The notes under the pieces were generated by a model. The model saw only the letters and a program-made list of their open reading frames with translations. It ran no database searches and was not told the origin of the DNA. Below, in pieces: positions 13,145 to 21,654 of a stretch of 42,288 nucleotides of DNA (its first letter is position 1; each line of letters opens with the position of its first letter). Origin of the DNA: a virus (taxonomy: Duplodnaviria; Caudoviricetes); the IMG/VR virus record IMGVR_UViG_3300032269_001075, positions 1 to 42,288 of that record; one strand, 5' to 3'. The position numbers and the translations under genes were made by a program.

Positions 13145-13155
13145 ATTATAGCATA
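13145..13155 (-). promoter_or_regulatory. Extended -10 motif TATGCTATAAT
   Basis: 6 nt upstream of ATG 13138. Confidence 0.6.
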
Positions 13156-13853
13156 GAATATGGGACATATTCTTTTACTTTGGATTTGAATTGGTCTAAA
13201 GTAAGAACTTCTATATGATTAAAAATTGGATTTGTGTCCATATATTTTTTTCTTTTTAGATTAAATTCTTTTATTAAAGAGTCGGCATCTTTTGATATTA
13301 AAACATAATATACTTTTTCTTTTGTATTTCTATATTTACTATTTTTAATATTTATAATTCCAACAAAGTTATGAAAAGTGGAAGTCTCTAATACATCTAC
13401 ATGGAAATTATTTGTTTTATTATAAATATAAAAATCAGAACGAGTATTTAAATAATATGTTTTTTGTTGATGTATAAATGGTTCAGAAAAGTATTTTAAT
13501 AACTCTTCATATACCAACGACTCATTTTTTTTATTTTTTTCTATTGATTCTTTAGCTTTTATGGAACGTGGTTTTCCTTTAGTGTAATCAATCACCTCAA
13601 GTCCTAAGTCTTGCCTTAGTTTAATTAAACCACCGAACTTACGTTGTATAGTCCTGGACGACGGCAAATAACTACAGGAGTCAAATTCTTGAGCTGTAGG
13701 GTATCTTCCACATTCTTCATGGAATCTATCCATAGAGAACTTTATAAAGTTTAAAGACACACCCCCCATAGCTTTAATTTGTGATAAACCTGATTTATCA
13801 AAAGACGAAAAACTTTGTATTTCATCTTGATTATTGTTTGTATATAATTTCAT
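13146..13853 (-). CDS. Putative free-standing homing endonuclease (homing-endonuclease-associated repeat plus PD-(D/E)xK-like domain)
   Basis: RFHEECGRYPTAQEF...LPSSRTIQRKFGG resembles the homing-endonuclease-associated repeat; RSDFYI...FHVDV resembles a nuclease core. Confidence 0.55.
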   Translation of the reverse strand: MKLYTNNNQDEIQSFSSFDKSGLSQIKAMGGVSLNFIKFSMDRFHEECGRYPTAQEFDSCSYLPSSRTIQRKFGGLIKLRQDLGLEVIDYTKGKPRSIKAKESIEKNKKNESLVYEELLKYFSEPFIHQQKTYYLNTRSDFYIYNKTNNFHVDVLETSTFHNFVGIINIKNSKYRNTKEKVYYVLISKDADSLIKEFNLKRKKYMDTNPIFNHIEVLTLDQFKSKVKEYVPYSML

Positions 13854-15159: not shown

Positions 15160-15516
15160 GACGCAAGATTACAATTATAACACTATCATTAAAATAAAAT
15201 AATTATATGACAAAAAAAAAATTACCTAGCATTAAAGGTTATAATAAAGACGGGTCAGTCTATAGGGCTATAGTATATACTAACAGTCAAATTTGAGATA
15301 GATTTAATCTTTATGTAAAAGAGTTATTAGAAAATTCTAACATTACTGATTATGATAAATTATTTTTATCAAAATTAAAAACTCTTAAAGATAAAAAAAA
15401 TATATATAGCAATTTGACTATAAGAGACTATTTTTATAAATTCAACAATTGAGATATGACGCAAGATTACAATTATAACACTATCATTAAAATAAAATAA
15501 TTATATGACAAAAAAA
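15160..15516 (+). repeat. 59-bp perfect direct repeat (15160-15218 and 15458-15516)
   Basis: gacgcaagattacaattataacactatcattaaaataaaataattatatgacaaaaaaa occurs twice; each copy includes a start codon. Confidence 0.9.
15207..15500 (+). CDS. Hypothetical protein, 97 aa (2 TGA)
   Basis: Open only with TGA=Trp; starts in repeat copy 1 and ends in copy 2. Confidence 0.6.
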
Positions 15517-18871: not shown

Positions 18872-19150
18872 ATGAAAACAAAAAAAATAAAATCACCAGT
18901 TCAACCTATAGAAGAAAAATTTGAAAGTCTTGAAGCAATACTTTTATCTCATGGTAAGATGATGACACTCTTGAATGAAAATCAGGCAAGATTTGATAAT
19001 TGAAGCATTTTTATACAAGAAATGATAAGCAGTATTGCTATTAAATCAAAAATAAAACCTCAAGATGTATATGATATAATGAAAGACAAAGAAAAAGTTA
19101 ATAGGTTTCAAGATGAATTTCTAAAGATTATTAAAGGGATTAAAAATTAA
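18872..19150 (+). CDS. Hypothetical protein, 92 aa (one TGA)
   Basis: Fills the gap before the helicase when TGA=Trp. Confidence 0.6.
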
Positions 19151-19159
19151 TAAAAAATT

Positions 19160-21397
19160 ATGAACACCGCACAAAACATAATAAAAAACGACTACTTAAG
19201 AGACTGGTCTATTAATGACAAGATTACTTTCTGTGAGTATTATCAAAAAAGAATACCACTAACACCAAACTTGTATCCCCATCAGCAGAAAATGTTAGAA
19301 AAGAACCCATCAAAACACTTGCTTGCTTTTTCCACGGGGACAGGTAAAACAATTACTGCTATTGCTCTTGCTAACAAAAATGCTACAGCAAGTTTGCTTG
19401 TGATAGCACCAAAAACAAATGTAAAGATGTGGTGTCAGGAGTTATCAAAGTTTATAAAGCCTGAAACTTATTGTATGGTTTTGAGTAAGGAAGAATTTAA
19501 AAGTCAGGCAAAAACTTTGTTTGCTTTTGATGTTGTGATTGTTGATGAATGTTTTGTCGCTGGAACAAAAGTAAAAACAATAAATGGTTATAAAAATATA
19601 GAAGATATAAAGATTGGAGAAGTGGTTTATAATGCTTGTGGAATTGGGAAAGTTCAAAATGTAGGAGTTAAAGAAGTTGATGAGATATATAAAATAAAAC
19701 TTTCAAATGGAAAAGAAATTGAATGTACTGGGGAGCATCCATTCTTGACGACTAATGGTTGGGTAAAAGTTAAAGATTTAATCCTTGATAATAGTGAGTT
19801 GTTGCATTATTGTAAAGTTTATGATATGATAAATTTATATGATATTAACTTGCGAAGTTTGCAAAAACAAAATAACAAAAATCTCTCGTGGGAGGGTAAA
19901 GAGAACATGCTCAAGGAGTTGTCAGACGAAATTGATGTGGATGGAACATGGGAAAAAAATTCACAAGGGATTACTCAATTCATACAAAAAAGACAAGATG
20001 AGAGCAGTCAATTCTTCGGAGAGAATGAAGAAAAACAATCCCATGAAGAATTTAGAGACAAGATTGAAGATGTCTCAAACATTAAAAATGATTGGACACA
20101 AGCCAAAAATACAGGGTGGGAATGGGAAAGAAATGCCAATTCCACAAAGAGTTTTATTAACAGCGTTAGGGAGTGGTTGGTATGCAGAGCATATTGTAAT
20201 AACAAAAAATGTGTTGGGGGCCCCAAACAATTACAAAATAGATATTGCAAATCCGAAAAAGCATATTGCTATAGAAGTGGATGGTCCAAGTCATTACTCC
20301 ATTTTAAGGAAAAATCAAGACAGAAAGAAAGAAGAAGTTTTGAAAAGATTAGGGTGGAAAGTATTCAGATTCAAAAATCAGGAAGTGATGGAAAATTTAA
20401 AGTCTATAATCTTGAAGTTTCAGGACACCCGTCATATATAGTTGAAGATATTGTGGTTCATAATTGTCATTATTTTTTTGGGATTAAAAGTCAAATGAGT
20501 AAGGCACTAGCATACTATAACAAAAAACACTCTACAAAATATTTATATCTTGCTACCGCCACACCATATCTATCTACACCAATGAATATTTATGTTGCAG
20601 GGAAACTGCTTGGGGCAAACTGAAATTATCAAGACTTTATAAACAAATTCTTTTATTATCTTCCTATGGGGCATAGAAGTATCCCTGTGCAAAGAAAGGG
20701 AATGGAAGAGGAAGTTTCTGCTCTAGTGTCGCAGATAGGGACTACTGTAGATATGGAAGAAGTTGCAGACGTCCCTGAACCCGAACTAAATAATTACTTT
20801 TTTGATAATACTGAAGAACAAAACAAGGCTATATTAGACTTTTTTGACCCTGAATTTATTGTAAGATTTACAAAAAAACACACAATGGAAAATGGATTTT
20901 TTAAAAACGATGATGGCGAGATTGTATATTTAGAAAATAAGAAAGAAGAATTTATTTTAAATTTTGCAAAAGAAAATAAAAAGTTTATTGTGGTTGCTAG
21001 ATACATACCACAATTAAATAAATATAAACAGCTATTAGAGAAAGATGGATATAAAACTTTAGAATTAAATGGCTCTATCAAAGACAGGCAAAGTGTTATT
21101 GATGAAGCCAACAAATTAGAAAAGGTTATATTATTAATCCAAGCATCATGCTCGGCGGGTTTTGAATTACCTACATTTAAGACCATGATTTTTGCCTCAC
21201 TTTCATTTTCACTGGTAGATTATGTGCAAATGATTGGGAGAATACAAAGAATTAATGCACTACAAGAGTGTCAGTATATACACCTGACACAAAATGGAGT
21301 GGATAGGGACATTAAAAAATGTATTGATGAAAAGCAAGACTTTACTCTCGCCATATATGGTAAAGAGTATGGTAATTATAAATTAAAAGAAGAATAA
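19160..21397 (+). CDS. SF2 (SNF2-like) DExH helicase precursor with intein; 745 aa, 440 aa after splicing
   Basis: LYPHQ (Q motif), TGTGKT (I), VIVDE/CH (II, split by intein), ATATP (III), SAGFEL (V), QMIGRIQR (VI); two track ORFs joined in frame by TGA at 20621. Confidence 0.92.
19802..19830 (+). promoter_or_regulatory. Internal promoter for the nested endonuclease
   Basis: TTGCAT-N17-TATGAT with TGn extension; ATG 19839 follows 8 nt after the -10. Confidence 0.6.
19839..20441 (+). CDS. Nested +1-frame DUF559/Vsr-like endonuclease with N-terminal Zn-binding and NUMOD3-like motifs, 200 aa
   Basis: CEVC...TCSRSC; NNPMKNLETRLKMSQTLK; YKIDIA...IAIEVDGPSH...DRKKEEVLKRLGWKVFRFKNQEV. Confidence 0.88.
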   Translation: MILTCEVCKNKITKISRGRVKRTCSRSCQTKLMWMEHGKKIHKGLLNSYKKDKMRAVNSSERMKKNNPMKNLETRLKMSQTLKMIGHKPKIQGGNGKEMPIPQRVLLTALGSGWYAEHIVITKNVLGAPNNYKIDIANPKKHIAIEVDGPSHYSILRKNQDRKKEEVLKRLGWKVFRFKNQEVMENLKSIILKFQDTRHI

Positions 21398-21405
21398 ATA
21401 AAATT

Positions 21406-21654
21406 ATGTTATACACAAATCTAAACAACGAGTTCGGAGAAAGTTATTATCGTAAAGAAAAAAGAGACAAAAAAAGACAATTAATAAAAAACACTATCAT
21501 AACAATAATATTAATAACTCTAGCAACGATATCTTTATCAAAACTTTACATCGCTTATGCCGAAGTAAGAGAAATGAAAGATAAAAATTTATCAATGAAA
21601 GAAGTCAGACAATACTTAATCTGAAAAAAAGTAGTAATGACAAATAACAAATAA
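21406..21654 (+). CDS. Small membrane protein, 82 aa
   Basis: Hydrophobic stretch TIITIILITLATISL; extends through TGA to TAA. Confidence 0.6.

Follow-up and report, generated by a model that had tools for sequence, protein, structure and literature searches.

Inteins whose endonuclease is encoded outside the intein's own frame have been described before. In actinobacteriophages, antisense LAGLIDADG, antisense Vsr-like and frame-3 endonuclease VII-like genes lie within inteins (Gosselin, Arsenault, Gogarten; bioRxiv 10.1101/2025.01.02.630785). In the available text of that preprint, these elements resemble the one analyzed here in having a contiguous intein, an endonuclease in another frame, an unstructured in-frame filler and signs of continued transfer, and an origin from free-standing endonucleases is proposed there. 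Their hosts, supplements aside, are DNA polymerase, minor capsid, terminase and thymidylate synthase genes, their Vsr-like genes are antisense and their same-strand case is endonuclease VII-like; here, in contrast, a Vsr-like gene lies on the same strand in the +1 frame, mostly at motif II of SF2 helicases and in many phyla. A cyanobacterial dnaX intein with an out-of-frame LAGLIDADG gene and frame-dependent dN/dS (Phillips, DeSimone, Gogarten; bioRxiv 10.64898/2026.09.14.751524) shares with our element an overlapping same-strand endonuclease ORF and the coexistence of full, mini and empty alleles. Unlike our element, it has a LAGLIDADG enzyme, a single host gene and a proposed Shine-Dalgarno start, and it is called a rarity.

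Three other systems come close. In fractured genes, a Vsr-like endonuclease gene lies between the halves of a split intein (Dassa et al. 2009, PMC2677866); in the available portions of that article the Vsr-like gene occupies the endonuclease position and its 3' end overlaps the C-terminal intein part. I-Bth0305I, a dimer that cuts the uninterrupted allele only (2011, PMC3239194; PDB 3R3P), has, like the enzyme here, a Vsr-like catalytic fold, the same Asp-His-Asp spacing and a separate N-terminal region that is likely DNA-binding, whereas it resides in a group I intron of recA, is 266 aa long and is only ~21% identical over the domain, as far as the accessible part of that report goes. The ShiLan domain hides an out-of-frame HNH gene in a phage gene insert (Arsenault et al. 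2025, PMC11855218); according to the accessible part of that article, it too places an endonuclease in a stop-free insert, with leaderless initiation proposed, but the enzyme is HNH, a splicing domain is absent and the host is a methylase. Another article (PMC9403480) mentions a DUF559 gene and no overprinted intein. Our search, which lay outside most subscription literature and preprint supplements, brought up no article describing a Vsr-like gene in the +1 frame on the same strand within helicase motif II inteins. The first-pass annotation of the present DNA knew of no description of the architecture; its suggested novelty is not supported, given the two preprints, which in their available text hold out-of-frame or antisense endonucleases in contiguous inteins. 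The overprinted-intein architecture is already described, and what is notable here is its abundance, its fixed phase and its tractable cultured members. The abundance of the family contradicts the published rarity of out-of-frame intein endonucleases.

The window, the whole 42,288-bp stretch analyzed, is a complete virus record with direct terminal repeats, and this 42-kb phage encodes terminase and major head protein genes. The features of the helicase locus, all on the + strand, are:

19160..21397, +, SNF2/SF2-type phage helicase gene (745-aa precursor, 440 aa after predicted splicing)
19160..19549, +, N-extein, terminating in motif II ...VIVDE
19550..20464, +, 305-aa class-1-type intein (Cys1, block F, terminal His-Asn, +1 Cys; from sequence and Pfam)
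19727-19738, +, intein block B, TGEH (from sequence)
19802..19830, +, predicted internal sigma-70-like promoter, TTGCAT-17 nt-TATGAT with a TGn extension, 8 nt before the nuclease ATG
19839..20401, +, host-frame filler peptide, stop-free and otherwise unconstrained (no family match)
19839..20441, +, 200-aa nuclease gene, +1 to the helicase frame (DUF559, Pfam E 1e-11)
20241, 20274, 20292 and 20319, +, candidate catalytic residues D135, E146, H152 and D161
20402..20464, +, intein blocks F and G (VYNLEVSGHPSYIVEDIVVHN), with the nuclease stop TAG 20439-20441 inside
20465..20629, +, possible co-conversion tract, first ~55 C-extein codons (from tree grouping)
20465..21397, +, C-extein, Helicase_C (Pfam E 4e-12)

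The intein (CFVAGTKV...TGEHPF...VYNLEV...VVHN|C) splits helicase motif II at DE|CH. Every sequence feature of a class 1 intein is present (C1, TGEH, HN and +1 C). Pfam matched it to PF14890 (Intein_splicing) at E 4e-13, above the cut-off, and to PF07591 at E 6e-7. Excision in silico restores VIVDECH, and Cys1/His-Asn/Cys+1 splicing would give a 440-aa DECH helicase. The V/I-HN-C/S motif occurred in none of 101 shorter helicase homologues, so that the insert is absent from them at a conserved site. Coordinates and the PF14890 match agree with the first-pass description of a 305-aa motif II intein whose splicing would restore VIVDECH. The nested +1 ORF at 19839-20441, described there as DUF559/Vsr-like, matches that family, and the host-frame filler (19820-20380) matched no Pfam family at E≤0.1. 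Both frames are indeed open, with the nuclease TAG falling in block F, 23 nt upstream of the intein end. The NUMOD3-like segment named in the first-pass annotation drew no Pfam match at E≤0.1, a search that short motifs can escape, which leaves the label unconfirmed. The intein departs from a canonical full intein, its endonuclease being in +1 and none being matched in its own frame: a separate endonuclease ORF overlaps the open intein frame between the splicing blocks, as in non-canonical inteins. Nor is it a fractured gene or split intein, since the host frame is unbroken through the whole nuclease gene.

The earlier claim that a 745-aa precursor yields 440 aa depends on the genetic code. 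With TGA 20621-20623 read as Trp it stands, the helicase ORF spanning 19160-21397 (745 aa); under table 11 it fails, the ORF halting at that TGA after 487 aa. Of 104 aligned helicases, 69 have W at the corresponding position. In 13 genes matched to a relative, G001 (terminase 52-54% and capsid 61% identical; matched genes without in-frame stops), TGA faces W at 17 of 29 aligned positions and G at none, which rules out TGA = Gly. Trp codons in 29 sampled phage genes comprise 62 TGA and 42 TGG. By these alignments, TGA is Trp phage-wide. No tRNA genes were found in this phage, and a literature search on code 4 in Patescibacteria returned no matching paper. The 29 sampled genes have A-rich, mostly Shine-Dalgarno-free starts. 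Elsewhere in the window, the same 25 nt (ACTATCATTAAAATAAAATAATTAT) occurs at 15177-15206 and 15480-15504, ahead of ORFs at 15207 and 15505, and is a possible early-gene signal. A 235-aa ORF at 13146-13853 (-), just upstream of genes leading to the terminase, has a weak HNH_repeat match (E 6e-4, below the cut-off) and is possibly a second, free-standing endonuclease.

To gauge dual coding, we compared host-frame stops with two null models. No TAA or TAG was observed, against 17-19 after synonymous recoding of the nuclease with phage codon use (minimum 8 in 20,000 draws) and 10.5 in a within-gene shuffle (minimum 4 in 5,000). T-ending nuclease codons numbered 0 of 45 before AA, 0 of 14 before AG and 0 of 16 before GA, and 7 of 12 before GG; in 29 ordinary phage genes, T is the last base of 35-40% of the codons that stand before a codon beginning with AA, AG or GA. 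This codon-level stop avoidance extends over the entire overlap. Dual coding is more than chance and is under selection. As to indels, which the first-pass annotation had flagged as a check, a contig of run X1 (depth 38.9), which may be the source sample, is identical to 19000-21500, without a gap or a differing letter; runs X2 and X3 gave only short unrelated pieces.

We identified 56 homologues of the nuclease, 38-69% identical to it, and aligned 36 of them with it (alignment A1). The nuclease alone, used as query against viral contigs, returned no relative; the alignment profile did, and confirmed 457 viral, 355 metagenome and 137 genome contig stretches. We analyzed the best 80 of each collection and required the motif [IV]E[VI]DGxSH, so that decayed copies are under-sampled. 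The same host frame is open in 211 of 241 loci, our own included, and the other same-strand frame in 0 of 241 (table 11). Removal of duplicates left 216 loci, and removal of 12 weak or partial matches left 204 core loci, with the host frame open, in the same phase, in 185 and closed in 19; clustering at 70% identity sorted the 185, phage and bacterial sequences still drawn from the best 80 per collection, into 160 clusters. Host ORFs matched a Hint/intein family in 34 of 35 sampled cases; most are SF2 helicases, and terminases and one DnaX-like clamp loader also occur. Motif-delimited inteins lie at DE|C or DE|S in 155 of 170 cases, several of the other 15 being mis-delimited. The intein itself, used as query, retrieved 32 loci, all but one matching just the generic N-terminal splicing region. 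The host genes of L061, L090 and L093 have, ahead of the dual-frame intein, another insert of the LAGLIDADG type.

Selection acts on the two frames differently. Among 97 pairs with at least 62% nuclease identity, which are not independent, dN/dS had a median of 0.23 for the nuclease frame (86 computable) against 1.27 for the host frame (96 computable). The nuclease was better conserved than the host-frame protein in 92 of these pairs; the other five are all >85% identical. Between this copy and locus L034, amino acid identity is 60% in the nuclease frame and 36% in the host frame. The nuclease frame is under purifying selection, which is relaxed in the host frame, in line with the first-pass expectation of selection on frame +1 and not frame 0. 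In the observed phase, synonymous changes alone could free the host frame of stops for 202 of 202 nucleases, and the codon-aligned antisense phase likewise allows it for 202 of 202; the remaining same-strand phase allows it for 22 of 202. We infer that the phase is invariant probably because +1 is the sole same-strand phase that can always be cleared of stops synonymously.

The nuclease combines an N-terminal CxxC...CxxxC motif, a long helix and a C-terminal DUF559/Vsr-like (EDxHD-type) domain. Its structure model has a mean pLDDT of 90. The top Foldseek match was I-Bth0305I (3R3P) at E 1e-3, with none below E 0.001. VIA-align matches, which span residues 92-200 only, gave Z 10.5 for 3R3P (rmsd 2.4 over 89 residues), Z 11.9 for 3HRL, a non-homing DUF559 protein, and Z 10.0 for Vsr (1CW0). 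The spacing of D135, H152 and D161 equals that of D196, H213 and D222 in I-Bth0305I. Conservation of E146, D148 and H152 is circular, because loci were picked by [IV]E[VI]DGxSH; D135 and D161, outside the search pattern, are retained in 183 of 185 loci. The model thus has the predicted Vsr-like fold with an EDxHD catalytic set, and by analogy with I-Bth0305I the enzyme may possibly act as a dimer.

How would the nested gene be expressed? The predicted promoter lies just upstream of the nuclease ATG, at which its transcript would begin, and a leaderless transcript is therefore likely here; we consider it likely, from these sequence signals, that the nuclease is made separately from an internal promoter on a leaderless mRNA. 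Its -35 box fits 3 of 6 consensus positions, and a consensus promoter scan, with 9 sites against 11.9 expected, did not include the 19802-19830 site. The pattern TTGCAT-17-TAnnAT is common to L034 and the free-standing L035. Among loci of this intein type, 6 of 18 have a -10-like box 5-9 nt upstream of the start, compared with 3 of 223 internal ATGs (p 5e-6); the box also occurs in 7 of 132 other loci and 3 of 13 closed loci (16 of 163 starts overall), and TTG occurs at -35 in 7 of the 16 starts with a -10 box versus 21 of 275 background boxes. Shine-Dalgarno-like sites precede 58 of 132 other family starts versus 56 of 1108 internal ATGs. An ATG lies at most 22 codons ahead of the first CxxC in 163 of 204 core loci, and at our locus TAA 19830-19832 shuts the +1 frame two codons ahead of the nuclease ATG. 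In the long helicase transcript, an RNA hairpin at 19824-19840 pairs the -10 region with the nuclease AUG (z -2.9). We rejected an AUG-hiding hairpin as a family feature (z<-2 in 3 of 16 promoter-type starts, p 0.10 versus internal controls).

Cultured phages provide the homing evidence. Phage isolate records matching the nuclease number 41, and in 7 of 7 nuclease-bearing records examined the helicase alone is annotated. In three cultured Vibrio phages the 1068-bp intein is 94-97% identical at the DNA level and the exteins 77-85%. Third-position differences in one pair amount to 4 of 90 in the single-coding intein start versus 261 of 544 in the extein; the other two pairs have 14 of 90 each in the intein start versus 235 of 544 and 190 of 544. 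Hence, dual coding is not the source of the likeness. The same site holds full inteins, 150-aa mini-inteins and empty alleles, the last with DECH in 2 of 4 examined and also DEAH; CP-T1 (intein, DE|CH) and VchM-138 (empty, DEAH) have exteins 96% identical. An insert more alike than its flanks and patchily present is the pattern that homing would leave, and the sequences of the cultured Vibrio members have it. The 150-aa mini-inteins at the motif II site are those of L287 (Vibrio phage PS65A.1) and L286 (K459), and the PS65A.1 helicase has an extra insert near its N-terminus. Other cultured members are Corynebacterium glutamicum phage phi673, Pseudomonas phage MR14 and the Nahant Vibrio phages 1.088.O and 1.027.O, and Nahant phage 1.251.O has an empty allele.

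The homing evidence is indirect at our own locus. There, the helicase is 55% identical to intein-free alleles versus 49% to that of L034, and intein-free alleles separate the two helicases, while the nuclease forms one three-member clade with those of L034 and L114 (support 92). Of the 101 intein-free relatives of our helicase, just 2 carry DECH and none is >55% identical, so that no true target allele of this copy is among them. The 55 codons past the junction group with L034's clade (99/98) and the remaining helicase elsewhere (SH-aLRT 100). For this tract, which was picked post hoc, the conflict gave AU p 0.014 and 0.040 on 27 rows, and the site count was marginal (Fisher p 0.05). Such a conflict could also arise, without homing, from the recombination that is common in phage genes. 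TGA is absent from the element in both frames (P 0.005-0.008 by genome codon use; P 0.056 by within-gene shuffle), and import of the element from a standard-code phage is plausible on this codon evidence.

The family also exists outside contiguous inteins. The 19 closed core loci comprise 3 split inteins in the same phase, 1 single stop and 15 free-standing nucleases, 7 of these 15 directly upstream of an intein-free SF2 helicase. The nuclease tree needs at least 12 changes of state, and the 8-member clade holding our nuclease (support 98, FastTree) contains 4 nested and 4 free-standing members. The free-standing close relatives L035:1531-3373, L038:2812-4579 and L115:1264-2966 have a stop that overlaps the start of an intein-free helicase; these helicases are of the same family with altered motif II (EEIH, DEIH and DEAD). 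In L102, L225:1924-4203 and L251, which form one clade (support 99), the nuclease lies between split-intein halves in helicases, in the same phase; this is exactly the fractured-gene form as given in the available text of PMC2677866, whereas the intein here is unbroken. Three longer proteins matched: P0161, P0159 (a deletion-type fusion) and one long free form. P0161 (831 aa) is a UvrD-like helicase intein with the catalytic half of the nuclease family in frame, a form that would be the predicted outcome of a frame-restoring indel. Stops are not generally depleted in the former host frame of free-standing copies (1 of 15 at P<0.05, L200); recent escape from inteins is therefore unsupported.

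We suggest that the motif II intein and the overprinted Vsr-like nuclease form one homing element, with a probability of roughly 85%. The intein would remove its meaningless in-frame filler by splicing and restore the helicase, and the nuclease would cut at or near the joined GATGAA|TGTCAT motif II in the intein-free helicase gene of a co-infecting phage. Homologous repair would then copy the 915-bp insert plus some downstream exon, which can, in this scheme, supply the +1 Cys to DEAH or DEGH targets. The nuclease would initiate independently, through the internal sigma-70-like promoter here and through Shine-Dalgarno sites in most other members. The two-frame selfish element of the first-pass annotation gains from the family match, the stop-free host frames of homologues, the purifying selection confined to frame +1, the indel-free X1 contig and the homing-type distribution in relatives.

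Other readings account for parts of these data. The nuclease might be kept chiefly as a weapon against the essential helicase gene of co-infecting relatives, with homing a side effect. In its favor, the nuclease stands free in 15 of 19 closed-frame loci, in 7 of them immediately ahead of an SF2 helicase that lacks an intein, and 4 of 8 members of our nuclease's clade stand free as well, which indicates that the enzyme persists without an intein. T4-like phages, though, have free-standing homing endonucleases adjoining their target gene, which is a familiar homing layout too. Homing predicts the near-identical inserts in divergent helicases and the mini and empty alleles, and we judge a mainly offensive role unlikely. 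Less probable again is that this copy is a relic of a family that homes, its nuclease silent or inactive in a TGA=Trp phage. The failed search for a close empty allele would suit a relic; a full-length ORF modeled at pLDDT 90, differences from L034 that are mostly third-position (61/45/101) and retention of all 20 invariant columns, though by definition of alignment A1, would not.

Synthesis of the nuclease as a fusion, by programmed +1 frameshifting from the helicase frame, is a shade more improbable still. P0159 and P0161, with the nuclease half fused in frame to intein/helicase sequence, lend it some color, but TAA 19830-19832 blocks the +1 frame two codons before the ATG, and the family's start signals (ATG near the first CxxC in 163 of 204, Shine-Dalgarno-like sites in 58 of 132 vs 56 of 1108, -10 boxes in 6 of 18 vs 3 of 223) point to separate initiation. 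Two compensating indels in the assembly could have displaced an ordinary in-frame endonuclease, and the matching contig comes from a run, X1, that may be the source sample; this phase is, however, shared by 185 of 204 distinct loci (160 clusters at 70% identity), sequenced phage isolates have it too, and codon-level stop avoidance spans the whole overlap. The conserved phase already refutes such an artefact, to which we give almost no credence.

The homing element favored above belongs to a single family that displays the states proposed for intein endonuclease gain and splitting: free-standing, nested out of frame, split and in frame. A broader proposal, which we hold tentatively and with more doubt than belief, is that overprinting is a normal, long-lived lifestyle of a large endonuclease family, in which a promoter-plus-nuclease cassette would shuttle repeatedly between a free position beside a helicase, a nested one in the synonymous-compatible frame, a split form and an in-frame fusion; being TGA-free in both frames, it could home across genetic codes, as into this TGA=Trp phage. 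Cultured phage members make homing, nested-gene expression and natural overprinting directly testable, and the family may yield compact 200-aa site-specific nucleases. Because the nuclease goes unannotated in the 7 isolate records examined and the family is abundant (at least 185 distinct loci), many 'degenerate' helicase inteins may be active homing elements.
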